A stretch of DNA of 64,000 bases from Ktedonobacterales bacterium (GTDB lineage: Bacteria > Chloroflexota > Ktedonobacteria > Ktedonobacterales > Ktedonobacteraceae), in the NCBI GenBank assembly GCA_038209195.1, contig JBBQXY010000002.1, positions 9,606 through 73,605 of the forward strand, given 5' to 3'. This document shows positions 22,422 to 43,092 of this stretch, one piece after another; positions within the stretch are counted from its first letter, which is position 1, and each line of letters opens with the position of its first letter. The notes below the pieces were generated by a model. The model ran no database searches and was not told where the DNA came from. It saw only the letters and a list, made by a program, of their open reading frames with translations. The translations under genes and the position numbers were made by a program.

Positions 22422-24236
22422 ATGTCTGTCGGAGGTGTTTGCTTGTCTAACAGAGAATTTACCGTCATCAACGAATATCACTATAACCACAGCAGTCCTA
22501 TTCGTTGGATACTTTCGCATGTTTTGCGCTACAAACGCTTTATTGCCAGCTTTGCCTTAGCCTCATTGATTACAAATTCCTTCTATGCAACCGTTCCAAT
22601 CCTTACGGGGGCAGCATTCACCGCCGTGCTGCAAGGGAAGACGGGCCAGGGTCAGTTGATTCGTATTGTACTGCTCATCCTCACTGTCGTGCTCGTTGGA
22701 GGAGTCGTGGATTTGACCGCCCGTCTCTCATCTGAGATTCTGGGCAAACGCCTCGCAACCGATGCCCGCGCTGAACTCTACGCCAACTTGCTGGGCAAAA
22801 GCCAGACGTTCCACAATCGCCAGCGTGTGGGCGATATTATGGCCCGTGCGGCCAATGATATGAAGCAACTCAGCGACATGATTGTGCCAGGGGTAGATTC
22901 TGTCTTTGACTCGTTTACCAGCCTCGCTGTGACGCTCGTCTTTATTGGACTCCTCAGTCCTCAATTGCTGTTGACTCCGTTACTCTATACCGCCGTTTTT
23001 CTCGTGGCCTTGCGCTTTTACTCGCGTCAACTGGAACCTGTGTCCAATCGACTGCGTGACCAATTCGGCAAGATGAATGCTGTACTGACCGAGACGGTAG
23101 CTGGTATCGAGGTAGTGAAGGCCACGGCTCAAGAGAAACAGGAACAGGAGAAATTTGCCAGCAGTGCCAAACGCTATCGCGATTACTTCATACAAAATGG
23201 TGAGGTTCAGGCGCGCTATCTGCCAACGCTCTTACTGGTTGTCGCCTTGACTGGTGCTTTTCTGCACGCCCTCTTTCTGGTCGTGCATAACCAGCTTTCC
23301 GTGGGCAACTTGGTGGCCTACATGGGTCTGATGGGTATACTGCGCTTCCCCACCTCTATCTCGATCTGGTCACTCAACCTGGTGCAATTGGGTATCGCTG
23401 GTGCGGGTCGCATCCTCAACATCCTGCAAGAGGAAACGGAACTCGACGAGAACGAAGAGGGCTACAGTGGTGAGATGCGCGGCGACATCGTCTTTGACAA
23501 CGTCACGTTCAGCTACGGCAATACGCCCGTGTTGAAAAACATCTCCTTCCATGCCAAAGCGGGACAAACCATCGCTATTGTCGGACAGACCGGTGCTGGG
23601 AAAAGCACACTCACCAAGCTCGTGAACCGTATTTACGATGTCGACGCGGGACGTGTGCTGATTGATGGCATCGATGTACACGACTGGAGTATGGATGCCT
23701 TGCGTTCGCAGGTCTCCACCATCGAACAAGATATCTTCCTCTTTTCGCGCTCTCTCAGAGAGAATATCGCCTATGGACTCGGTCAGAAAGCGGACAGTGC
23801 GGCGATTGAACAGGCCGCGCACGATGCTCAGGCCCACGATTTCATCTTGCAGTTCAAAGATGGCTATGAGACGGTCATTGGAGAGCGCGGCGTCACCCTC
23901 TCCGGTGGTCAACGGCAGCGCATTGCCATCGCCCGTGCGCTCCTCACTGACCCACGCATTCTTATCCTGGATGACTCGACAAGCGCCATCGACAGCGCGA
24001 CCGAGGATGAAATTCAGAAAGCCATCCGCCGCCTGTTGCAGGGACGCACCACACTGCTCATCACCCATCGCCTTTCACAGATACGGTGGGCCGATTCCAT
24101 TCTGGTCTTGAAGCGCGGAGAGCTGATCGACCAGGGTACACACGAAGAACTGCTGCACCGCTGTGATGTGTATCGGCGCATCTTCACCCACTATGAACCA
24201 GCTACTTCCATTGCCTCCACTGGCAGTGAGCAATAG
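22422..24236 (+). CDS. ABC exporter, fused permease/ATPase (half-transporter 1 of a heterodimer)
   Basis: An N-terminal 6-TM domain is followed by Walker A (GQTGAGKST), the ABC signature (LSGGQRQR) and Walker B (ILILDD). Confidence 0.9.
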   Translation: MSVGGVCLSNREFTVINEYHYNHSSPIRWILSHVLRYKRFIASFALASLITNSFYATVPILTGAAFTAVLQGKTGQGQLIRIVLLILTVVLVGGVVDLTARLSSEILGKRLATDARAELYANLLGKSQTFHNRQRVGDIMARAANDMKQLSDMIVPGVDSVFDSFTSLAVTLVFIGLLSPQLLLTPLLYTAVFLVALRFYSRQLEPVSNRLRDQFGKMNAVLTETVAGIEVVKATAQEKQEQEKFASSAKRYRDYFIQNGEVQARYLPTLLLVVALTGAFLHALFLVVHNQLSVGNLVAYMGLMGILRFPTSISIWSLNLVQLGIAGAGRILNILQEETELDENEEGYSGEMRGDIVFDNVTFSYGNTPVLKNISFHAKAGQTIAIVGQTGAGKSTLTKLVNRIYDVDAGRVLIDGIDVHDWSMDALRSQVSTIEQDIFLFSRSLRENIAYGLGQKADSAAIEQAAHDAQAHDFILQFKDGYETVIGERGVTLSGGQRQRIAIARALLTDPRILILDDSTSAIDSATEDEIQKAIRRLLQGRTTLLITHRLSQIRWADSILVLKRGELIDQGTHEELLHRCDVYRRIFTHYEPATSIASTGSEQ

Positions 24237-24263
24237 CACTCATGAGAAGGAGAACAATACCCC

Positions 24264-26096
24264 ATGGGTTTCATTATGGATGGCCTCGATGCCGAAACAT
24301 ATGATCGCAGCTATGATGATCGCCAGTTGGTCGCTCGTATTATTCGCTACTTTCGACCGCAATTGACGGTTATGCTCTTCGTCGCGGTCCTCGTCGTGCT
24401 AAACTCGCTGATGGATACCGCTTTCCCCATCTTAATTGCCCATAGCCTGGATACGCTAGCTGCCGCCCAGACCGTCCAGACCATTAGTTTGCTGGTGGGC
24501 ACCATCCTGGTAACAGGGGTGCTTTCGTGGATATTCAACTTCTTGCGCCAACGCAATACCGCCCGTGCCGTGGGTAATGTCGTGCTGAATCTACAACAAG
24601 ACGCGTTCGCCGCCATCGTCGCCCGCGACATGTCCTTTTATGACGAGTATCCTTCCGGTAAGATTGTAAGCCGAGTAACATCGGACACCGAGAATTTCGC
24701 GACAGTCGTCACACTTACGCTGAACCTGCTGAGCCAATTATTGCTGTTCTTCCTGATCGCCGCCGTCCTGTTCTATATCAACGCACGACTAGCTCTATTG
24801 GCACTGACCATCACGCCCGCCATCGTAGTCATCGCGCTGGGTTTCCGCTGGATTGCGCGCCGTGCCACACAACGTTCGCAACGCTCCCTGGCTCGAGTCA
24901 ATGCCAACGTGCAAGAGGCCATTAGCGGTATCACCGTTGCCAAGAACTTTCGCCAAGAACAGAATATGTACGACGCGTTCAAGAAGGTCAATGAGCAGTC
25001 GTACCATGTCAATGTGCGTTCAGGCTTTGTCTACAACGGCGTCTTCCCGCTGCTCTTCCTCGTGGCTAACATCGGCACCACCATCGTAGTCTACTTTGGC
25101 GGCCTCAACGTGCTCGATCACAGCATTACCGCCGGCGACTGGTTCCTCTTCGTACAGAGTATTGGTATCCTCTGGTTTCCACTGACGAGTATTGCCTCCT
25201 TCTGGAGCCAGTTTCAACTGGGGCTTTCCGCCAGTGAACGTGTCTTTGCCTTGATCGACGCGGAACCGCGTGTGCAACAAATCGATAATCAAGCGGTACC
25301 ACACTTAGCGGGACGCATCGAATTCAAAGATATGTTTTTCCAGTACACCGAGCAGCAGACCGTCCTCGCTGGCTTCAATCTAACGATCAAGGCTGGCGAA
25401 ACTATCGCGCTGGTGGGTCACACTGGCGCAGGGAAATCGAGCCTGGGGCGGCTGGTAGCTCGTTTCTACGAGTTTCAAGGAGGGCAGTTATTGATTGATG
25501 GACACGATATCCGCACCTTTGATCTGAGTGCCTATCACCGTCAATTGGGCATTGTGCCACAGTCACCTTTCCTCTTCTCCGGTACAGTAGCCGACAACAT
25601 TCGCTATGCCCATCCAGCCGCGAGTGATGAAGAGGTGGCAGCCGTGGCACAGCGCATCGGCTATGGCGATTGGTTAGAGGCGTTGCCTGATGGGCTGCAA
25701 ACTGAGGTTGGCGAAGAAGGGAAAGCGTTGTCAATGGGCCAAAGACAACTGGTCGCGCTGGCAAGGGTGCTACTGCAAGACCCATCCATTATCATCCTGG
25801 ACGAGGCCACTGCTAGTGTTGACCCTTTGACCGAGGCGCAAATTCAAGAAGGGTTGGACTTGGTGCTGCAAGATCGCACCGCCATTCTGATCGCCCACCG
25901 TCTCTCGACTATTCGCCATGCCGACCGCATCATCGTCCTGGATCGTGGAAAAACCGTTGAAGAGGGCAGCCACGATGCCTTAATGGTGCAAGGTGGACAT
26001 TACGCTCATCTCTACAACACCTACTTTCGCCATCAATCGCCCGACTATCAGCCCGGTCAGGGATTCGTCCCGGTCCGTATCGCTTTAGCCGAATAA
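24264..26096 (+). CDS. ABC exporter, fused permease/ATPase (half-transporter 2)
   Basis: It has Walker A (GHTGAGKSS), the signature (LSMGQRQL) and Walker B (IIILDEAT). A GAAGGAGA RBS lies upstream. The gap from the previous gene is 27 nt. Confidence 0.9.
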   Translation: MGFIMDGLDAETYDRSYDDRQLVARIIRYFRPQLTVMLFVAVLVVLNSLMDTAFPILIAHSLDTLAAAQTVQTISLLVGTILVTGVLSWIFNFLRQRNTARAVGNVVLNLQQDAFAAIVARDMSFYDEYPSGKIVSRVTSDTENFATVVTLTLNLLSQLLLFFLIAAVLFYINARLALLALTITPAIVVIALGFRWIARRATQRSQRSLARVNANVQEAISGITVAKNFRQEQNMYDAFKKVNEQSYHVNVRSGFVYNGVFPLLFLVANIGTTIVVYFGGLNVLDHSITAGDWFLFVQSIGILWFPLTSIASFWSQFQLGLSASERVFALIDAEPRVQQIDNQAVPHLAGRIEFKDMFFQYTEQQTVLAGFNLTIKAGETIALVGHTGAGKSSLGRLVARFYEFQGGQLLIDGHDIRTFDLSAYHRQLGIVPQSPFLFSGTVADNIRYAHPAASDEEVAAVAQRIGYGDWLEALPDGLQTEVGEEGKALSMGQRQLVALARVLLQDPSIIILDEATASVDPLTEAQIQEGLDLVLQDRTAILIAHRLSTIRHADRIIVLDRGKTVEEGSHDALMVQGGHYAHLYNTYFRHQSPDYQPGQGFVPVRIALAE

Positions 26097-33260: not shown

Positions 33261-33482
33261 ATGGAAGAGCAGCAAATTCGAGATTTTGTGTACCGCGTTT
33301 CTCATGATGAGAAACTGCGCAGCGAACTGACCAGCAGCCCTGATGACGTGTTGGGGCGCGAGAGCTTTTCCCCCCGCGTGGCAGAGATTGTACGAAAGCT
33401 AGTCCCACACCTTGCTTTCAACACCGAGTTTGCGACACCTTCTTCCTGGTGGAAAATTTACACGTCTGCCATAGATGGATGA
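33261..33482 (+). CDS. candidate RiPP/pheromone precursor peptide (Nif11-like leader, Trp-Trp core)
   Basis: It is 73 aa. The N-terminus (MEEQQIRDFVYRVSHDEKLRSELTSS) resembles Nif11-type leaders. The C-terminus is FNTEFATPSSWWKIYTSAIDG. The stop overlaps the next start by 8 nt (ATGGATGA). Confidence 0.65.
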   Translation: MEEQQIRDFVYRVSHDEKLRSELTSSPDDVLGRESFSPRVAEIVRKLVPHLAFNTEFATPSSWWKIYTSAIDG

Positions 33483-34521
33483 CAATACTCGTTCGCACGT
33501 AGCTCAGTTAGCCGCTCAACAGCTCCTTCTTGTTGAGCGGCTTCGCATTTTTTTAGCAGCACTCCAAAGTGACTTGCGTGCTGACGTTGAACGTGCGCTG
33601 GCATCTGAAGGGAAATTATTATTTCCAACAGCCAAAGAAGACGTTGCTCAAGCCTCCCGCATTGCTGGTTCCTGGTCGCTTTTAACGTTCCTGGTGGCTC
33701 AAACGGTTATGCCTGAAATCGATCTTGCGTATGCCAGTAACGTTGCTATAGCGACCGAATGTTTTATTTGTGCCCTTGATCTGCTGGATGATATAGAAGA
33801 TGATGATCAGACACCGATAGTCCAAACTTTGGGCATTGCCCGCACGCTGAATGTCTCGACCGCGCTCTTAACGTTGGCGCAACAGGCTCTCCTCTCGCTA
33901 TCCCAATACCATGTTCCAAGTGAACGCATAGTACTACTGCTTGATACCCTCCAAGCTTGTACGTTAGCGGCTGTGGTCGGTCAGCACAGAGACATCCTGG
34001 CCGAACAACAGCCAGCGCAAGATTTTACTGAGCATGATTGTATAGAAATTGCTCGTGGGAAGGCAGGTTCGCTGATGCGCCTGGCTTTTCTATTTGGCGC
34101 GATTTGTGCTGGCGCGGATGAACAGACCCTTGACCAATGTTCCACACTAGGTGAACTTCTGGGGATAGCCCATCAACTTGACAATGATGCTCACGACTTG
34201 TATTATCTACTACAAGGTTATCCTTCCATTGAAACGCTTGCAGCAGGAACGAATACCACTTCACCTGCCGTGAAAACAGACCTGGCACGAAGTAAGAAGA
34301 CGCTACCGGTTGTGCTTGCCGCTCATAGCGAAGAGGTTCTTCAAGGAAATGCATTGCCAGCCGATGAAAAGAAACAAGTGCATCAACGCGCACTACTTGA
34401 TGGAATAATTACAACTTGGGGCATTTTTCTCCTGTATCGTGAGCGAGCACGTGACAGTTTACGGGAGATTGAGACTCATTTGCCGCTTAGTCCATTACTG
34501 AGACTACTTTTAGGTTTATAG
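33475..34521 (+). CDS. polyprenyl-synthase-fold protein, ComQ-like candidate peptide prenyltransferase
   Basis: The acidic first motif is LLDDIEDDD (33781-33807), with no following RRG. It also has GQHRDI, RGKAGSL and a degenerate second motif LDNDAHD. The protein is 348 aa and helical. Confidence 0.7.
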   Translation: MDDNTRSHVAQLAAQQLLLVERLRIFLAALQSDLRADVERALASEGKLLFPTAKEDVAQASRIAGSWSLLTFLVAQTVMPEIDLAYASNVAIATECFICALDLLDDIEDDDQTPIVQTLGIARTLNVSTALLTLAQQALLSLSQYHVPSERIVLLLDTLQACTLAAVVGQHRDILAEQQPAQDFTEHDCIEIARGKAGSLMRLAFLFGAICAGADEQTLDQCSTLGELLGIAHQLDNDAHDLYYLLQGYPSIETLAAGTNTTSPAVKTDLARSKKTLPVVLAAHSEEVLQGNALPADEKKQVHQRALLDGIITTWGIFLLYRERARDSLREIETHLPLSPLLRLLLGL

Positions 34522-34588
34522 GAGATGTCTGACCTGGCATCTGCATTTGGTAGGAGTAAGTGGTGTGGCTTACGCGAGAGGAAGTTGT

Positions 34589-37522
34589 ATGAGAAATATC
34601 TCCTGGACGCAGGCCAGGGTTGGACGCTTCTTAATAATCCTCGTGGCTCTGGTATTCTATACATTCTTATTATATTTTGATGCCTCACGATATTTCCCTC
34701 GCGCTTTTCCAGGAAGTTCTTCTTTTTCCTGGCTCAACTGGTTAAGCTTTGATTTTTCCGCTTTAGTGGCATTATTTTTTTGGGCAGTGGGAGCATTAGT
34801 TTGGCTTTTCGCTCGTCACCGCCAGGTTGCTCTATTACTTTTCAGCTTCTGTTTAGCCATGATGGCCACTTTTGCGGTAGAAAATGCTGCGGCATCAAAT
34901 GATTCTGCCTCATCATTAATTGGAGCAGGAGCTAGTGCTATAGCTCTCCTGCTTTTTTCAGCTTTGTTGCTGGTTTTCCCGCGCAACTTTCTCGCATTTC
35001 CGCAGCAAGACGAGCTATCAGGAACATCAGAAACACGTTCAAGAGGTCAACGTCAACATCCGAAGCAATATTATATCGCACTAGGTTTACGAGGGTATCT
35101 CATTGCGCTCGTTTTGTTGTGTGTTAGTAGTCTTATCTTCTCGGCTTTTGGTTCCTTCCTCCCGTTGCCATTAGTAAATGTGCTCAATATTCTTGATTAT
35201 ATTTACAGGTTGATGACTATGGTAGGCCTCCTGGTCACTATTCTCATGTCCTATTTCTCATCCTATTCTGTGCGAGAGCGTCAACAACGCCGCCTATTTG
35301 TGATTGGGGTTATTCTGTCTGTTGCCCCTTTTTTATTGCTCTCATTTATACCAGCAGTTTTACAGTTCTCACCCCAATACGTCGCTGACAGTGAGGTAAC
35401 GACCATTCCTATTGTGCTGTTTCCGCTTGCCCTGGGTTATACCATTTTGCGCTACCAGATATTAGTCTTTGATATGTACATTCGCCGTGCGGCTGCATGG
35501 ATGGTTGGCGTAGTGGGTTTAACGTTTCTGGGCTATCTGGTAGTGACAATTGGCAGCGTTATTTTGTCGAAAACCATCTCATCCTACGTCGTCTTTGTCG
35601 TGGTCGCCATGGCCCTGCTCTCGCCATGTATCTGGTGGTTGGCAAAGCTAGTGACGGAACGCCTCTTCTTCAGCGAAATTTTACACTATCGGACGCTGAT
35701 TGATGGCCCTGATATTATGTCGAGTGAAACATTCGACCTCAATGAAGCGGCGCGTTTACTCACCGTTGCCGCTGTTAATACCTTTGAAACGCAGGAAGTA
35801 TGCTTATTTGTTTTGGATGAGGATACTGGCTGTTTCCAAATATATCCTCCGCTCACAGAAAAAGACTCCCATGATGCCGCGCGTCGCGACCTGGCACAAC
35901 AACTATTGCAGACAGTGAAAATCCCTTCCCACGAGGGATTTGCTTGGCTGGATGCTAATGAGCCTTTCCTGATAAACCTGGCCGTCGCTCATCGTCCTTT
36001 GCTGCTTAGCGAGGCAATGAAAGCAGACGGTGAGGTATCGCTTGGCCTGGGTCGGTATTTAGCAGGTACCACAGTTCTCAATAGTGCTGAACCCCTCCTT
36101 GCAGCCGTACAAGCCCAGGGGAGGATGATTGGTATACTAGCCTTGGGCAAACGAGGAGATCGTCAACTCTATGCAGGCCCAGACTTTGAGGCCATCTTTC
36201 ACATGTTGGCACGTTTCTCTCCTGTCTTGGAGATAGCACGGCTGTATGTGAAGGAGAGTCAGCACGTTGCTATCCTCAATACACTCTATAGTGCTAATAC
36301 CTTGACCATCAAAGATTATGAGACAATCGAAGAGGTTGCGAGTGCCTATACAAAAATTGCCGCGGATGCCACTACGACTGGGGCAAGTCTCTGGTTGTAT
36401 AACCAGCAAGACAACAAGGTACATTTTGTGACGTACGCGGGTTCTGGTCCGCGCTTGATGAGCCAGCAACCAACGATGTCGCTCCATGAGATGGATTGGG
36501 CACCGTGGTTTTATCATGGGAAGGGCAAGCAGGCATGGAATGGCGATGCGACCAACGTTCCTTCGTGCCTAGAACAGGCTCCGTATTTCCCTGTGGCTTG
36601 GATTCCGCTGTACCGCGGTAAACAACCACTAGGACTGCTCACGTTGACGTATGACCGTCCACATCTTTTTTCGCAAGAAGAGAAGCGGGTGCTGGAGATG
36701 TTTGCCAGGCAATGTGCCGTAGCACTGGAAAATGCTAGTATTACGATAGAGCTGCGTGCCGCTTATGAGCGCCAAAAAGAGTTAGATACCCTGAAGGATC
36801 AGTTTATCATTACGGCATCCCATGAGCTGCGCACGCCACTTACGGCTGTCTTGGGCTATATTGAACTGCTAGCAGCCTATAATTCCAGTCTTTCTTTAGA
36901 AACACGGGCTGATTTTATTGCCAAGGCCCATCATGGCTGTGATGAATTAGCACTGATGGTGAATAACATCATGGACGCCAGCCGCGTGCAACTTGACGCT
37001 GAGAACATCAAGTTGAGTAAGCTATCACTGGGTGAACCCATCACACATGTTCTGGAAATTCTCGAAGCTATGACGAAGCGGGAACAGCGCACTGTACTGG
37101 TAAGCATACCCGCTGAGGTAAGTGTGATGGCGAATGCGATACAATTGCGCCAGGTCTTATTAAATTTAATGAGTAATGCCCTTAAATATTCGCCGCAAAG
37201 CAGTACCATTGAGATTACCTGCGAGACCGATGATGAGCATGTGTTAATACGGGTACATGACCACGGACTTGGTGTACCAGTAGAAGATCAACTTCACCTG
37301 TTTGAACGTTTTGTCCGCCTTGAACGCGACATGAATAGCCCTGTGCGCGGTGCAGGTTTGGGTTTGTATATTTGTAAACAATTAGTGGTTGCGATGGGAG
37401 GAGAAATCTGGGTGGAAAGCAGTGGTATCCCCGGAGAAGGCAGTAGTTTTGTTTTCAAACTCAAGCGCGGTACCCGTGGCTCAGATACGAATAAGCTTGC
37501 ATTAGAGCACCAGGAAGTATAG
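34589..37522 (+). CDS. polytopic sensor histidine kinase (ComP-like architecture)
   Basis: About 10 N-terminal TM helices are followed by a central region that may hold GAF-like domains. It has an H-box (ITASHELRTPLTAVLGY), an N-box (LLNLMSNALKYS), G1 (DHGLGV) and G2 (GAGLGLYICKQLV). ATG 34589 follows GAGAGGAAG. The ORF track starts at a TTG at 34547. Confidence 0.9.
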   Translation: MRNISWTQARVGRFLIILVALVFYTFLLYFDASRYFPRAFPGSSSFSWLNWLSFDFSALVALFFWAVGALVWLFARHRQVALLLFSFCLAMMATFAVENAAASNDSASSLIGAGASAIALLLFSALLLVFPRNFLAFPQQDELSGTSETRSRGQRQHPKQYYIALGLRGYLIALVLLCVSSLIFSAFGSFLPLPLVNVLNILDYIYRLMTMVGLLVTILMSYFSSYSVRERQQRRLFVIGVILSVAPFLLLSFIPAVLQFSPQYVADSEVTTIPIVLFPLALGYTILRYQILVFDMYIRRAAAWMVGVVGLTFLGYLVVTIGSVILSKTISSYVVFVVVAMALLSPCIWWLAKLVTERLFFSEILHYRTLIDGPDIMSSETFDLNEAARLLTVAAVNTFETQEVCLFVLDEDTGCFQIYPPLTEKDSHDAARRDLAQQLLQTVKIPSHEGFAWLDANEPFLINLAVAHRPLLLSEAMKADGEVSLGLGRYLAGTTVLNSAEPLLAAVQAQGRMIGILALGKRGDRQLYAGPDFEAIFHMLARFSPVLEIARLYVKESQHVAILNTLYSANTLTIKDYETIEEVASAYTKIAADATTTGASLWLYNQQDNKVHFVTYAGSGPRLMSQQPTMSLHEMDWAPWFYHGKGKQAWNGDATNVPSCLEQAPYFPVAWIPLYRGKQPLGLLTLTYDRPHLFSQEEKRVLEMFARQCAVALENASITIELRAAYERQKELDTLKDQFIITASHELRTPLTAVLGYIELLAAYNSSLSLETRADFIAKAHHGCDELALMVNNIMDASRVQLDAENIKLSKLSLGEPITHVLEILEAMTKREQRTVLVSIPAEVSVMANAIQLRQVLLNLMSNALKYSPQSSTIEITCETDDEHVLIRVHDHGLGVPVEDQLHLFERFVRLERDMNSPVRGAGLGLYICKQLVVAMGGEIWVESSGIPGEGSSFVFKLKRGTRGSDTNKLALEHQEV

Positions 37523-38054: not shown

Positions 38055-38693
38055 TCAGGAGGCTTTGACGTAGCCCCTATCTTTGGCATACTGCCAGAGC
38101 GAACGTTGCAATTGGCGACGCGCACGGGATATTCGGCTCATTACTGTGCCTATCGGTATATTTAATGCTTCAGCAATCTCTTTGTATGATAAGCCTTCGA
38201 TATCGGCGAGGATGACTGCTATGCGAAAATTCGGCGGCAGGTCATTGAGCGCGTTATGAACATCTTCATCTAAATAGTGGCTCAGTACTTCTTCCTCCGC
38301 CCCCGCACTGAGTTCCTGCCCGCTTAAATCCTTGATGCGGTTATAAATATAGAAATCTTCTCCCTCGGGTAGCGATGCTGTTGAAGGATGAGTAGCCTGT
38401 TTGCGATAGCGATTAATCGCGGATGTATTTAAGATGCGGAAAAGCCAGGCACGTAAATTGGTGCCAGGTTGATAGGTATGGGCAAAACGAAATGCTTTGA
38501 GCATCGTCTCTTGTACCAGGTCTTCGGCTTCTTGCTGACTGCTCATCATGCGCCGCGCAGTACGGTATAGACTATCGAGTTGAGCCAGGACTCCTGCCTC
38601 AAAATCTTCAGTTTGTTTCTGTTCAGTATCTGTCAACTGCTCTTTTGGTTCCGGTATGGTCTCTTCCGGTTCCACGATTGGCTGTTCCGACAT
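38055..38693 (-). CDS. ECF (group 4) RNA polymerase sigma factor, SigR/SigE-like
   Basis: Region 2 is DLVQETMLKAFRFAHTYQPGTNLRAWLFRILNT. Region 4 is VILADIEGLSYKEIAEALNIPIGTVMSRISRARRQL. There is an acidic N-terminal extension. Confidence 0.9.
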   Translation of the reverse strand: MSEQPIVEPEETIPEPKEQLTDTEQKQTEDFEAGVLAQLDSLYRTARRMMSSQQEAEDLVQETMLKAFRFAHTYQPGTNLRAWLFRILNTSAINRYRKQATHPSTASLPEGEDFYIYNRIKDLSGQELSAGAEEEVLSHYLDEDVHNALNDLPPNFRIAVILADIEGLSYKEIAEALNIPIGTVMSRISRARRQLQRSLWQYAKDRGYVKAS

Positions 38694-38827: not shown

Positions 38828-39130
38828 ATGAACTGTTATGAAAGTATCGCTCGTCTTCATCTCTATATTGGTCGGGAACTCAACACGGAAGAGGTCGCTG
38901 TTGTCCAGCAACATCTTACAAATTGTCCATTATGTGAATGTCGCTTTCAATTTGATATGAAAGTGCAACGACTTATCCACGAGCGGTGTACTATCGAACA
39001 GGCACCCGCGCACCTGCGCGAGGCTGTATTACGAGTAGCACGTTCGCCCATTGGTGAGTCAGTCGAACTTGATCCCGCAGTAGCGATGGAGATTCGAGCC
39101 GATTTGGCAGAGCTGGAGGACTGTGAGTAG
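38828..39130 (+). CDS. zinc-binding anti-sigma factor (ZAS), RsrA-like
   Basis: The H-x3-C-x2-C motif is HLTNCPLC. An N-terminal Cys (MNC) and a downstream RLIHERC are also present. It is 100 aa and soluble. An AGGAGGA RBS lies upstream. Confidence 0.8.
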   Translation: MNCYESIARLHLYIGRELNTEEVAVVQQHLTNCPLCECRFQFDMKVQRLIHERCTIEQAPAHLREAVLRVARSPIGESVELDPAVAMEIRADLAELEDCE

Positions 39131-39264: not shown

Positions 39265-39984
39265 TTACACGCTGATCCCTAGGGTAAAAAAGTGATTCAG
39301 GGAAGGTAGGAGGTTGAAGAAAATACATACGCCGGCAAAGATCATTACGATACCTGTGCCAATTTCGATTTTCCCTAGATGTGGCTTGAGCCATTTTAAC
39401 CCTCTACTGAGTTGATCTACGCCCAGTCCTAAGAGCAAAAACGGTAAGCCGAGACCAAGCGAATAGACCAGTAAGAGGGTGACACCTTGGCGCAGCGTTG
39501 CCGCGCTGGCTGCTAGGCTCAGAATCGGGCCGAGGATAAGGCCGACGCAAGGCGTCCAGCCGATGGCGAAGATGATGCCGAAGAGCAGAGAGGCATAGTA
39601 ACTGGGACGGCTGGGATGAAATTCAAAGCGTTTTTGCAAGTAAAGCCAGGGTATTTTCAGAATGCCGATCATTTGCAGTCCAAAAAGGATCAGGACGATG
39701 CCGCCAATTTGGCGAAGCAGAAATTGGTAGCTGCGTAAAAAACTGCCCACCGTGCTGGCAGTTGCTCCCAGAGATACAAAAGCCAGAGTGAACCCAACGA
39801 CGAACGTCAATGCATGCAAAAAAGTGTTCAGACGGCTGCCTAAAGTATGCTGATCGGCTTGATAGACGCTATGCCCCACTAATTGAGCTAAGTATATTGG
39901 AACCAGTGGCAAAACGCATGGTGAGAGGAATGAGGCCAATCCAGCGAGAAACGCGAACCCCAGACTGATCTGCGATAAATTCAT
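39265..39984 (-). CDS. ccdA: cytochrome c biogenesis / thiol-disulfide transfer membrane protein CcdA (DsbD core family)
   Basis: It has six TM helices. The two conserved Cys lie in SPCVLPLVPIY and TPCVGLILGP. Confidence 0.85.
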   Translation of the reverse strand: MNLSQISLGFAFLAGLASFLSPCVLPLVPIYLAQLVGHSVYQADQHTLGSRLNTFLHALTFVVGFTLAFVSLGATASTVGSFLRSYQFLLRQIGGIVLILFGLQMIGILKIPWLYLQKRFEFHPSRPSYYASLLFGIIFAIGWTPCVGLILGPILSLAASAATLRQGVTLLLVYSLGLGLPFLLLGLGVDQLSRGLKWLKPHLGKIEIGTGIVMIFAGVCIFFNLLPSLNHFFTLGISV

Positions 39985-40057: not shown

Positions 40058-41812
40058 CTACAATTCGTACAGGAGAGGATATTTGGCAAGCCATTTCTTC
40101 AGCAACAGCCGCGCGGATGTGCATAGTTCGTCTTCATTATGTTTTACTGGGCTGCTAAAGGCAGCGAGTTCTTGGATACAATAGAGAACGATAGCATCAG
40201 CAGTGGTGGACAGTGGGTCTAGGGCATCGAGAGCGTTAAGCGCGGTAATAGCTACCAGTTCGTCGGAGTCCAATAACGCCTCGAGCAGAGCGGGAATAGC
40301 CCAATGAGCAGCAACTTGTCCCAGGATAAAAGCGATACATGCCCGTACACCGCTATCAGTGTCATGATGCAAGAGGTACAGCAGTTGCGCATGAAGTGTT
40401 GGTGGTTGATTGTCCAACATGCAGAGTAGTTCTATAGCGCGTTGGCGCACCCAAGCATGAGGACTTGCCAGCAACCGCAAAGGCGTTCCATCCTGGTTGA
40501 TCGCGGCGCAAATAGCCGTGTTTGCGGGCAATTTCCTCCGCGTGCGTGTCTGCCAAACGAGGTAAGCCAGTGAATCAAGTGCTGTAACCTGTACCTCTTC
40601 ATTGGGTTGTGCTAGTACATAGAGCAGCCATTGCACCACTTTTTCGCGTATAGGAAGACGCAAAACACCATGCAGTAAGCGCAATGCCTCGATAGCTTCA
40701 ATCTGGCCTAGGTGCTCACAATTCTGTAGTGCTATACCCAGCACTGCCGTCACATATTCTCCCCCTATAGCTGCCAAAGTATAACCAGCTTGCCGCCGTA
40801 CAGTCGAACGTGTTGCTTGTAAAAGCGGTAGGATGTTAGCTGAAAACATATGTTGCCGCAGGATTAGACGTATAGCTTTGTGCTGTGCCATCTCTTCCAA
40901 GGCCAGAAGGGCAGCGATTTGCACAGACGGTATACAAGAAGCAAGCAAGGGGAGTAGCAAGAGCAGCGTGGATGGCTGGACAATAGCGCCTAGTGTGCGC
41001 GCCGCAAGTTGGCTGATCTCTGTATTTTCGTCGGTGAGTGCGGCGAGCAGTAGACGAGTTAATTGTTCGTGTTGTTGGGGGTTAAGGTGTGTTGGCGGCT
41101 CCGTTGCCAGAATAAAGATTGTTGCCTTACAAACTTCGCCTGTTGTGTTTTCGGCCAATAGCTTCATGAGCACTTCAATGCCGCTACTATCCCCGCTACG
41201 TAATAACGTGTAGGAAGCTGCGAGCCGAACAGATATCGGTTCCTGTGTGCTTTGGCAGATACGCAGTGCTGCTCGGGTTGACTCTTGCAATGGTTCGTTA
41301 CTTGTCAGATTGGCTAAGGCCATTGCCGCGGCGTAGCGCGTTGTCTCCCACGGTGCCGCCAGCCCATCACATAACAGCGCTTCGTAGCAGGAATCCGATT
41401 GCGCATCAACCGCTTCTATGACACTGGTCCAGAGTACGGGGCCAGCGGGTTGAGAAATGGCAGGGTGTTGTAGCAGTGCATCGAGCGAAAGGTTTGCGTC
41501 CTGGCAGAGGTGAATGAGCAAACGGCTGCACTGTTCGTATTGCAGGGGCCATCCGGGCCAGGGTGGCGAAATAAGTTCAGGGTAGTGATGCAGTGTGCTT
41601 AACAACAATGGCAGCACAGCGGAACCCTGGCGAGCCAAATAGCGTGTAGCACGCAAGCGCGTATCAAAAGCAGTTTCGGGGCCAAGCAAAAGGGTCAAGG
41701 CCTTGAGGGTACGTTCTTGCCTGGCTGTGTTATATGGAAAATGCCGCCCCTTGGGCTGCTCTGAGGGTAAGCGATTCGAAAGTTGTCGTCTGTTGCTATA
41801 TTCACTAATCAT
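40058..41812 (-). CDS. HEAT/armadillo-like repeat protein
   Basis: The 584-aa protein is Leu/Ala-rich with repetitive helical units (..VRxxAAxxLxxIG.. pattern). No catalytic motif is present. Confidence 0.65.
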   Translation of the reverse strand: MISEYSNRRQLSNRLPSEQPKGRHFPYNTARQERTLKALTLLLGPETAFDTRLRATRYLARQGSAVLPLLLSTLHHYPELISPPWPGWPLQYEQCSRLLIHLCQDANLSLDALLQHPAISQPAGPVLWTSVIEAVDAQSDSCYEALLCDGLAAPWETTRYAAAMALANLTSNEPLQESTRAALRICQSTQEPISVRLAASYTLLRSGDSSGIEVLMKLLAENTTGEVCKATIFILATEPPTHLNPQQHEQLTRLLLAALTDENTEISQLAARTLGAIVQPSTLLLLLPLLASCIPSVQIAALLALEEMAQHKAIRLILRQHMFSANILPLLQATRSTVRRQAGYTLAAIGGEYVTAVLGIALQNCEHLGQIEAIEALRLLHGVLRLPIREKVVQWLLYVLAQPNEEVQVTALDSLAYLVWQTRTRRKLPANTAICAAINQDGTPLRLLASPHAWVRQRAIELLCMLDNQPPTLHAQLLYLLHHDTDSGVRACIAFILGQVAAHWAIPALLEALLDSDELVAITALNALDALDPLSTTADAIVLYCIQELAAFSSPVKHNEDELCTSARLLLKKWLAKYPLLYEL

Positions 41813-41925: not shown

Positions 41926-43092
41926 TTATTTCGCTGAAGTTCTAAAGATTTTGCGCCAAAAGGAACGCTGCGCCTTGTTTTTGCGTGCTTTTTGGGCCCG
42001 TTGCTCGCGTCTGGCAACAGGCGAGGGTGGGCCAAGCGGTCCCGTTGGAGCCTCTGTATCGATCCCAGGGACAGTAGTGGGACGTGTGGGCGATTCGCTG
42101 AAATTCGGCTGTTGCGTTGTGGGGGAGAGAGCCTCAACTCGCACACCAGAAGGCGGTTGGGGCAGTTCCAGGTCCATATAGCGTGGTACTTGCATTTGCG
42201 GGCGTTTCGGTGGGTGAAGCACCACCTTTGGGCGTGGTGGTGGCTCAGGAGTCTCCTGTGCCACTGGCCTCAAGTTGAGTGAGCGCAGGTCTCGTGCGAT
42301 GAGCATAGCCTGCTCATAGCGTTGATTGCGATCGCGTGACATGGCGATGAGAATGATTTGCTCTAGCTCTTGTGAAATATCTGGCACAAGTGCAGCAGGA
42401 GGGCGTAACGGGCCGCTAATAATCGCTTGTGTGAGCTCTGGCAATGACCGTCCGATAAAGGGACGCTGTCCCGTCACCATCTCATAGAGCACCACGCCAA
42501 GCGCGTAGATGTCGCTGCGATTATCTAATGTCTGTCCCCATACTTGTTCAGGCGAGGCATAATAAATGCTCCCGACCAGCGTTTTCGCGACCGTGATTTT
42601 CTGATGGCCGGTGGCGCGCGCCAAGCCAAAATCCATCACTTTGACCTTGCCCCAGCGATCCAACATTAAATTCTCAGGCTTGATGTCACGATGGATCACA
42701 TTGCGCTCACGATAGGCTGAATCGAGGGCATCGGCAATTTGTGCCGCGTACTCAGCCGCCAGATAGTGCGGAATGGTGCCATCTAAATGCAAAAGACTGG
42801 CGAGCGTTGGCCCTTGGACAAATTCCATCACGAAGTAGAGGAGGCCATTTTGCTGGCCCGCGTCAAAGATTTGTACGATATTCGGGTGGTTGAGGCCAGC
42901 GATGATTTGGGCTTCGCGAATAAAACGAGCTACATAGGAAGTATCTTTCGCAAGCGCTTGTGACAATACTTTGACGGCAACTTCGCGGCCCAGGGCGATC
43001 TGGCGACCACGATACACCATCCCCATGGAGCCGCGTCCTATTTCTTCTTCCAACTGATAGCCACCCAGGCACTGGCCTGCCAGTTCATTCAT
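41926..43092 (-). CDS. Hanks-type Ser/Thr protein kinase with Pro-rich basic C-terminal tail
   Basis: Kinase motifs are GRGSMGMVY, VAVKVL, HRDIKPEN, DFGLA and ASPEQ. No TM segment was seen. Confidence 0.9.
   Translation of the reverse strand: MNELAGQCLGGYQLEEEIGRGSMGMVYRGRQIALGREVAVKVLSQALAKDTSYVARFIREAQIIAGLNHPNIVQIFDAGQQNGLLYFVMEFVQGPTLASLLHLDGTIPHYLAAEYAAQIADALDSAYRERNVIHRDIKPENLMLDRWGKVKVMDFGLARATGHQKITVAKTLVGSIYYASPEQVWGQTLDNRSDIYALGVVLYEMVTGQRPFIGRSLPELTQAIISGPLRPPAALVPDISQELEQIILIAMSRDRNQRYEQAMLIARDLRSLNLRPVAQETPEPPPRPKVVLHPPKRPQMQVPRYMDLELPQPPSGVRVEALSPTTQQPNFSESPTRPTTVPGIDTEAPTGPLGPPSPVARREQRAQKARKNKAQRSFWRKIFRTSAK

Follow-up and report, generated by a model that had tools for sequence, protein, structure and literature searches.

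A candidate lipopeptide signalling cassette of precursor peptide, prenyltransferase-type enzyme and sensor kinase in Ktedonobacteria, resembling ComQX and StheQX

Peptide pheromones carrying a prenylated tryptophan have long been regarded as a speciality of Bacillus and the Firmicutes. Mature ComX pheromones comprise 6-10 amino acids with no defined consensus sequence. ComX is cleaved by unknown proteases (PMC10853753). A precursor gene followed by a prenyltransferase gene beside a histidine kinase gene is already known from PalPXQ (PMC10853753). In the Chloroflexi, the pair StheQ/StheX was described for Sphaerobacter thermophilus (Thermomicrobia) in a preprint of 31 August 2026 (10.64898/2026.08.29.745113). 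In the present study we analysed a stretch of 64,000 nucleotides from a Ktedonobacterales bacterium (assembly GCA_038209195.1, contig JBBQXY010000002.1, positions 9,606 to 73,605), referred to as the window, which contains three adjoining genes designated X, Q and P. A preliminary description of this DNA had held that ComQXP-type loci were reported essentially only in Firmicutes. The StheQ/StheX preprint has made this view obsolete; outside that phylum the Ktedonobacteria cassette has a predecessor.

StheX comprises 69 amino acids with a Trp-Trp pair third and second from the end, and its residue W68 is farnesylated by StheQ, with which it forms a stable complex (10.64898/2026.08.29.745113). 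In the crystal structures of StheQ, the first Asp-rich motif (D85, D89) binds a single Mg2+ and the pseudo-second motif (N215, D216, D219) has no such ion; the mutants N215D, D216A and D219A lose 83-98% of the activity (10.64898/2026.08.29.745113). According to the same preprint, StheQ-type enzymes share about 19% identity with ComQ. It calls the biological role of StheX unknown, and its text mentions a kinase 0 times (10.64898/2026.08.29.745113).

The cassette of the window is arranged in the order X-Q-P on the + strand and consists of a peptide gene, a prenyltransferase-type gene and the gene of a ten-helix sensor kinase (Table 1). All three were called as genes in an NCBI assembly, where they are nameless. 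The kinase of about 977 amino acids with some ten transmembrane helices, seen in the preliminary description 67 nt downstream of Q, was confirmed: its start in the assembly call is the ATG at 34589, 67 nt past the Q stop, while the longest open reading frame (ORF) would begin at the TTG at 34547. The order X-Q-P and the lack of a ComA-type regulator hold for the window as well. Neither a response regulator nor a paralogue of X, Q or P was found in the window, and no receiver-domain protein occurs among the immediate neighbours of the cassette or the eight other window ORFs scanned. In our view this is probably a lipopeptide signalling cassette of the ComQX/StheQX type in its Ktedonobacteria version, which would make and sense a prenylated peptide. 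The ComX/ComQ/ComP-like module proposed earlier gains support from the conservation of X, from the likely membership of Q in the StheQ family and from a conserved sensor module.

A scan of one genome per species yielded 58 loci, which belong to Ktedonobacteria (including Thermogemmatispora, Ktedonosporobacter and Dictyobacter) except for a few labelled Chloroflexia or Chloroflexota only. Just 5' of Q, 54 of the 58 loci contain an X homologue of about 65 amino acids, and a homologue of P was detected 3' of Q in 55 of them (tblastn in both cases). The 73-codon ORF of X is a real, conserved gene, and the X-Q pair appears to be a near-universal, ancestral feature of the class Ktedonobacteria.

The leader of X follows the consensus MEEQQIxxFVHRVSxDExLRxEL..P..VIxREGFSPRVAxVxxRLVPHL. 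Downstream of it, the peptide alignments contain about 10 unconserved residues and then an invariant Trp, which is preceded by W in 128, by F in 28 and by Y in 3 of 161 distinct X peptides. Pairwise identity averages 54% over the leader and 15% over the core. The Trp is not the final residue in most of the peptides, and 0-3 residues follow the last Trp in 159 of the 161. No conserved Gly-Gly was found ahead of the core in the X alignment. In the window, the translated ORF ends in ...FNTEFATPSSWWKIYTSAIDG / ...PSSWWKIYTSAIDG. The AlphaFold model of this peptide shows four predicted helices over residues 2-52 (predicted local distance difference test score, pLDDT, about 80) and a less confident tail. 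A Foldseek comparison of the model with the PDB gave nothing significant, the best matches (E >1) being the LigAB-type DesB and a proteusin precursor.

Between Ktedonobacteria and other clades, the leaders of X are homologous (hhalign, 97.8%, E 8.1e-13). This homology is visible by profile-profile comparison only; pairwise BLASTP of the window X against a Thermomicrobiaceae X gave no match. When a database was searched with the peptide profile, the best 120 matches were all from Ktedonobacteria, and StheX was not reached. The window X resembles the Nif11 leader family weakly (E 0.008-0.009, 16-17 bits vs cut-offs of 23.8 and 32.3). In the Pfam scan at E <= 0.1 no ComX-family match was obtained for X, the weak Nif11 match (E 0.009) being the only one; the Pfam library presumably includes a ComX model. 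The family Frankia_peptide (PF14407) was matched by 13 of 24 X peptides from other clades with a best E of 6.6e-08, the first of these members scoring 19.5 bits vs a cut-off of 48.

X and Q share 8 nt, ATGGATGA, at 33475-33482, as noted in the preliminary description, which had also proposed a test of the small ORF, its Trp pair and the overlap for conservation in related loci. The ORF (54/58) and the invariant Trp (as a pair in 128/161) are conserved, the overlap is not: X and Q are usually separated by 15-100 nt across related loci. The translational coupling deduced from the overlap is therefore not a conserved property, although the overlap itself exists. In a relative with a Q of 82% identity, X ends in WWRNT-stop 13 nt ahead of the Q start codon, and a DNA alignment with the loci L125:330-365 and L001:5940-5995 shows that the ancestral X stop was lost in the window lineage. 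Both the 8-nt overlap and a read-through of nine residues result from the loss of this stop codon. With nine residues behind Trp-Trp, the window X is the sole one of the 161 peptides with more than six after the last Trp. From these alignments, the overlap and the coupling deduced from it are best read as a recent lineage-specific accident and not as a design feature.

Q matches the Pfam family polyprenyl_synt (PF00348) with an E of 1.6e-18. All four motifs listed in the preliminary description, LLDDIEDDD (33781-33807), GQHRDI, RGKAGSL and LDNDAHD, were found again. The reported lack of RRG past the first Asp-rich motif is borne out by the comparison with the Streptomyces polyprenyl synthetase 3nf2, where DDIEDDDQTP of Q stands against DGDEQRRHRD (QTP vs RRHR). 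At the site of the second motif Q contains QLDND vs QAVDD of 3nf2, and N237-D238 (NDxxD), which is invariant in the homologues, takes the place of DDxxD in canonical synthases. The residues D102/D105/D106/D109/D111, D173, K196 and Q234/N237/D238/D241 are invariant in 26 homologues and map with a constant offset onto D82/D85/E86/D89/D91, D153, K174 and Q212/N215/D216/D219 of StheQ. Q retains every residue that mutagenesis or crystallography marked as important in StheQ.

A comparison of Q with models of farnesyl diphosphate (FPP) and geranylgeranyl diphosphate (GGPP) synthases, suggested in the preliminary description, gave 58-63 bits for the NCBIfam models, far below every one of the curated cut-offs (450-475 bits). 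The predicted structure of Q is all-alpha (pLDDT 86). GGPP synthases and the indole prenyltransferase Ord1 were about level in a Foldseek search with this model, GGPP synthases coming first (TM-score 0.70 to 5jfq and 6kd7, 0.65-0.69 to Ord1). Ord1 (PDB 9V4G-9V4J) was also among the best sequence matches of Q (E 7.8e-07).

Q homologues number in the hundreds and all of those with an organism label are from Ktedonobacteria; in their automated source annotation they appear as 'geranylgeranyl pyrophosphate synthase'. When 1.84 billion representative proteins were searched with a profile, 96 relatives of Q were retrieved at E <= 1e-30 and 813 at E <= 1e-10. Among these relatives there is a family of about 300 amino acids with the motifs D..DE..D.D and Q..ND..D, whose source labels are Thermomicrobiales, Thermomicrobiaceae or Nitrolancea. 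In three members of this family, 12 of the 13 StheQ residues named in the preprint recur with exactly the same numbers, and the alignment of the Ktedonobacteria Q with the family extends over 276 columns (hhalign, 100%, E 1.7e-47, 39% identity). Homology of Q to StheQ was judged via these close Thermomicrobiales proxies, recognised by residue-number fingerprint and organism labels. Because the motifs align and profile homology to the 300-aa family is evident, we assign Q to the StheQ branch of ComQ-like enzymes, and it would accordingly be no chain-elongating synthase.

In P, a hydropathy scan located about ten hydrophobic transmembrane helices in residues 28-366, and the Pfam domains GAF, HisKA (PF00512, E 4.3e-12) and HATPase_c follow C-terminal to them. 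The membrane module itself is matched by no model of Pfam or NCBIfam. Two loci of the 300-aa enzyme family, one of them in a Thermomicrobiaceae metagenome-assembled genome (MAG), contain, in this order, a small ORF (ending in ...GSWY or ...GYWF), the enzyme and a membrane protein of about 1100 amino acids, in which transmembrane helices are combined with GAF, HD-GYP and GGDEF domains. Residues 126-450 of P are similar to the membrane region of the Thermomicrobiaceae GGDEF/HD-GYP protein (BLASTP, E 1e-12), the stretch P.....Y.ILRYQ..D...IRR being common to both. Compared as profiles, the N-terminal regions of the Ktedonobacteria kinases and of the sensors from other lineages align over 352 columns (100%, E 1.1e-39). 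The cytoplasmic output of the module varies and is HisKA/HATPase_c, GGDEF + HD-GYP, or HD-GYP alone.

The same picture emerged from 80 further loci of a metagenome scan, for which counts were limited to loci with enough flanking sequence. An upstream X-like ORF with terminal Trp accompanies Q in 29 of 32 loci of the Ktedonobacteria type and in 37 of 42 of other types. The downstream membrane module was present in 24/24 and 25/27 loci, respectively, with a kinase output in 20 of the former; in the latter, 5 had a kinase and 11 GGDEF and/or HD-GYP. That the membrane module stays with X-Q while its output is exchanged is as expected of a cognate receptor. Comparisons of this kind point to the membrane module of P as a dedicated receptor for the X-derived peptide, and the co-occurrence of module, X and Q across lineages would be the strongest argument for signalling. 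In the literature searched we found no account of the constant company of the module with X-Q or of its GGDEF/HD-GYP fusions.

Some individual loci deserve mention. Outside Ktedonobacteria (L060:1313-4645, L059:6891-10232, L082, L076, L088, L124) the fusion partners of the module are GAF, HD-GYP and GGDEF domains, which occur in both orders, or HD-GYP alone, and the Thermomicrobiaceae sensor of L060 contains an extra N-terminal PDZ-like domain. The non-Ktedonobacteria modules are weakly similar to PrsK, a PEP-CTERM kinase, in its membrane region (TIGR02916, E ~1e-05, far below the cut-off). In a metagenome clade, L132:2834-7149 has the gene of an OmpR-type response regulator behind a complete cassette of X (...PLDNYWL), Q and HisKA kinase, with a DDE transposase gene 5' of the cassette; L131 is arranged alike. 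In L110, an HTH_17-receiver regulator is encoded just 5' of X. Four MAGs contain two separate Q loci each (L002/L027, L023/L036, L008/L037 and L021/L046), and the X cores of the same MAG differ where both are visible, e.g. ...PTNPWWQR in L002 vs ...AAGGWWGF in L027. These paired loci with differing cores suggest parallel signalling channels in one organism. L036 has a second X-like match on the opposite strand (5840-5694).

For the mechanism we propose the following course. X would be translated as a precursor of about 65-73 amino acids, whose four-helix leader docks on Q. With the first Asp-rich motif and Mg2+, Q would take up a prenyl diphosphate, in all probability a C10 (geranyl) or C15 (farnesyl) one, and attach its prenyl moiety to the indole ring of W64, the invariant Trp close to the C-terminus of X. 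Since Q has lost both the site for isopentenyl diphosphate and its second Asp-rich motif, prenyl transfer instead of chain elongation is expected. After removal of the leader, for which a cut behind the conserved LVPHL-x-x is the most obvious candidate, a short strain-specific prenylated peptide would be released and sensed by the membrane module of about ten helices of the neighbouring kinase, which in turn would switch the HisKA/HATPase core. We infer the prenylation of W64, the length of the donor, the cleavage of the leader, the export and the function of the kinase as receptor from the comparisons described above.

Several points weigh against this interpretation. Its support, at this locus and in all Ktedonobacteria, comes from computational comparison. 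The homology of Q to StheQ was established through proxies, and the link from Q to ComQ depends on the 19% identity given in the preprint. Neither a protease nor an exporter nor a response regulator is encoded in the cassette. With its nine-residue tail past Trp-Trp, a 1-in-161 outlier, the X of the window in particular could be a poor substrate, since PalQ, a different Trp prenyltransferase, is abolished in its activity by C-terminal extensions of the substrate (PMC10853753). Finally, adjacency of the genes within Ktedonobacteria is weak evidence because the whole neighbourhood is syntenic; it is therefore the co-occurrence across lineages that carries the argument.

Of the alternatives, the one that fares best is that X is prenylated as proposed but, cleaved or not, is retained by the cell that makes it; anchored in the membrane, it would serve the sensor as a partner or ligand that arrives from the cytoplasmic or membrane side, comparable to the CaaX-type lipidation that targets eukaryotic proteins. 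The cassette contains no signal peptide, exporter or leader protease, the leader of about 52 amino acids is strongly conserved and predicted to form a folded four-helix domain, and the acceptor Trp at the extreme C-terminus resembles the position of a lipid anchor. The stable complex of StheQ and StheX also fits such a role (10.64898/2026.08.29.745113). On the other hand, a hypervariable core beside an invariant Trp is the pattern of ComX, which is likewise without a known exporter or protease (PMC10853753), and it is usual for ribosomally made, modified peptides to have conserved leaders. We consider a cell-retained X unlikely.

Even less probable, in our opinion, is the production of a secreted lipopeptide natural product by X-Q, i.e. 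an antimicrobial or surfactant, with a sensor that regulates production or senses the effects without being a specific receptor. The weak resemblance of X leaders to the Nif11, NHLP and 'Frankia_peptide' precursor families would be in line with such a product, as would the finding that prenylated Trp peptides can be membrane-active (PMC13290415). However, no further tailoring, transport or immunity genes were found in the cassette, which is an ancestral single-copy element in a housekeeping neighbourhood and not part of a variable biosynthetic island, and the sensor module accompanies X-Q across lineages despite the swapped output, as a cognate receptor would. That Q is an ordinary FPP/GGPP synthase next to an unrelated small ORF and kinase is suggested by the source labels and by the best NCBIfam, PDB sequence and Foldseek matches, but is highly improbable in view of the missed cut-offs, the invariant NDxxD, the absence of basic residues past the first motif, the co-occurrence of X and sensor with Q across distant clades and the proven peptide prenyltransferase activity of the family member StheQ (10.64898/2026.08.29.745113).

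Returning to the lipopeptide signalling cassette as the preferred interpretation, a more far-reaching proposal is tempting, to which we would give slightly less than even chances. X-Q-R could be a widespread, unrecognised signalling system, in which a prenyl-Trp peptide is read by a dedicated polytopic membrane receptor module fused interchangeably to a kinase or to enzymes of cyclic di-GMP (c-di-GMP) metabolism. Ktedonobacteria are filamentous, spore-forming bacteria, and in them the ancestral, almost universal cassette may time multicellular development. By the domain comparisons, the kinase-fused lineages would be Ktedonobacteria and some soil and peat clades, and the lineages with GGDEF and/or HD-GYP fusions Thermomicrobiales and others. 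If this holds true, a single protein would provide a route from a lipopeptide pheromone to c-di-GMP. What the present analysis adds to the described systems is the conserved candidate receptor module with its interchangeable outputs and the near-universal presence of the cassette in Ktedonobacteria. With a concrete candidate receptor named, the role of StheX-type peptides becomes directly testable. Cultured carriers of the cassette exist, among them Ktedonosporobacter rubrisoli (SCAWS-G2, locus L038) and several Thermogemmatispora species. Thermogemmatispora carboxidivorans PM5, T. tikiterensis T81, T. aurantia A1-2 and strain brp13 also carry it. Moreover, the hundreds of natural X/Q pairs represent candidate enzymes for the lipidation of Trp near the C-terminus in diverse peptide contexts.

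Table 1. Position of the cassette, its parts and adjoining genes in the window.
Feature	Position	Strand	Description	Basis
X	33261-33482	+	73-aa precursor peptide, putative ComX/StheX analogue	ORF; NCBI assembly gene call; upstream homologues
X leader, residues 1-52 (MEEQQIRDFVYRV...RKLVPHLA)	33261-33416	+	four predicted helices	
X hypervariable core, residues 53-62 (FNTEFATPSS)	33417-33446	+		peptide alignments
Trp63-Trp64 (TGGTGG)	33447-33452	+	Trp64 is the invariant residue and predicted prenyl acceptor	
X 9-aa tail (KIYTSAIDG) and stop	33453-33482	+	lineage-specific; creates the ATGGATGA overlap with Q	
Q	33475-34521	+	348 aa, predicted peptide Trp prenyltransferase of trans-isoprenyl-diphosphate-synthase (IPPS) fold, ComQ/StheQ family	
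Q first Asp-rich motif D102-L-L-D105-D106-I-E-D109-D-D111	33778-33807	+	predicted prenyl-diphosphate/Mg2+ site	homology
Q pseudo-second Asp-rich motif Q234-L-D-N237-D238-A-H-D241	34174-34197	+		alignment, StheQ correspondence
Hairpin and U-rich tract in the 5' coding end of Q (codons 12-27)	33509-33555	+	candidate leaky terminator/attenuator after X	
P	34589-37522	+	977-aa polytopic sensor histidine kinase	
P conserved membrane sensor module (transmembrane helices and juxtamembrane region)	34760-35911	+	proposed receptor for the modified peptide	
P GAF domain	36323-36730	+		PF13185, E 1.3e-09
P kinase core, HisKA (PF00512) and HATPase_c (PF02518)	36794-37468	+		Pfam scan
MarR-like winged-helix protein, 88 aa	37672-37938	+		PF01047, E 1.7e-12
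Extracytoplasmic function (ECF) sigma factor	38055-38693	-		
zf-HC2 anti-sigma factor	38828-39130	+		
CcdA/DsbD-like membrane protein	39265-39984	-		

The gene for a MarR-like protein is located 150 nt past the kinase gene on the same strand in the window. Of 49 Ktedonobacteria loci that allowed an assessment, 26, Thermogemmatispora among them, have such a gene 120-335 nt past the kinase. As no response regulator adjoins the cassette, this protein is a candidate regulator and could be the transcription factor of the module. Upstream, murE and a queuosine-salvage gene are syntenic in 39 of the 58 loci, and the ECF sigma factor, anti-sigma factor and CcdA-like genes 3' of the cassette in 33-47 of 58. 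Judged by this synteny, the cassette occupies a conserved core-genome neighbourhood and not an island. Two adjoining half-size ATP-binding cassette (ABC) exporter genes (ABC_membrane + ABC_tran, 604 and 610 aa; 22422-26096, + strand) lie 7-11 kb 5' of X; a C39 peptidase domain was not reported for this pair in the domain scan. Within the fetched flanks, a Ser/Thr protein kinase gene (41926-43092, - strand) is kept in 4 related loci and the gene of a 584-aa HEAT-repeat protein (40058-41812, - strand) in 1.

The hairpin in the 5' coding end of Q has a stem of 13 bp (AGCCGCTCAACAG...CTGTTGAGCGGCT-like) with a U-rich tract behind it and gave a terminator-like match; its fold energy is -27 kcal/mol (z = -2.8). 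Most Ktedonobacteraceae loci contain a similar hairpin with U-rich tail at the same place, which was not evident in the Thermogemmatispora loci. In a single-register subset of 22 sequences the consensus is an 8-bp stem with compensatory changes in 4 of 8 pairs. RNAalifold predicted no structure for all 34 hairpin sequences, because the 5' arm occupies two registers in different lineages. The 3' arm encodes a conserved E-R-L. The hairpin may act as a leaky terminator or attenuator, by which X transcripts would outnumber those of Q and P.

Compared with known systems, canonical IPPS (IspA, GGPPS, IdsA/IdsB) share with Q the fold, the first Asp-rich motif and the motifs GQ..D and K(A/T)G, but exhibit DDxxD and basic residues past the first motif, where Q has NDxxD and no basic residues. 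Ord1 resembles Q in its IPPS fold and a similar active-site logic; according to the preprint its substrate is an indole rather than a ribosomal peptide, and neither precursor nor receptor genes were described for it (10.64898/2026.08.29.745113). PalP-PalX-PalQ of Paenibacillus alvei, compared by description, likewise combines a histidine kinase, an NHLP-type precursor with conserved C-terminal Trp and a Trp prenyltransferase of the isoprenoid synthase superfamily, the precursor gene being ahead of the prenyltransferase gene (PMC10853753). PalQ, however, falls into a sequence cluster by itself, used to be annotated as a terpene synthase and needs Trp as the very last residue (PMC10853753).

ComQXPA comprises an enzyme of the IPPS fold without second Asp-rich motif, a precursor with Trp near the C-terminus and a hypervariable pheromone region, as does the cassette of the window (PMC4008528). 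By description, ComQ resembles Q in being a single-domain PF00348 protein without the second Asp-rich motif, and the adjoining histidine kinase ComP has 8-10 transmembrane helices compared to about ten in P, a likeness of architecture only (PMC4008528). In contrast to the order Q-X-P and the ComA-type response regulator of ComQXPA, the order here is X-Q-P with no such regulator adjoining. No ComX model was matched by the window X, whose leader bears a weak resemblance to the Nif11/NHLP type, and P contains HisKA (PF00512) and GAF instead of the HisKA_3 core (PF07730) of ComP. The cassette probably works like ComQXPA without being an orthologous locus.

StheQ/StheX belong to the same phylum and a homologous enzyme family, in which the first motif D..D[DE]..D.D, the pseudo-second motif Q..ND..D and the Lys and Asp ligands are the same. 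StheX is also a precursor of about 65-70 amino acids with folded helical leader, disordered tail and C-terminal Trp-Trp, the leaders being homologous as judged by the other-clade profiles. Differences concern the class (Thermomicrobia vs Ktedonobacteria), the length of Q, which exceeds that of StheQ by about 45 amino acids, and the sensor, whose membrane module is joined with GAF, HD-GYP and GGDEF domains among the Thermomicrobiales relatives of StheQ and belongs to a histidine kinase here. The preprint places stheX downstream of stheQ, whereas X lies upstream in every StheQ-type relative we inspected (L059-L070). On these comparisons, StheQ/StheX is to be regarded as the closest relative of the Ktedonobacteria cassette.

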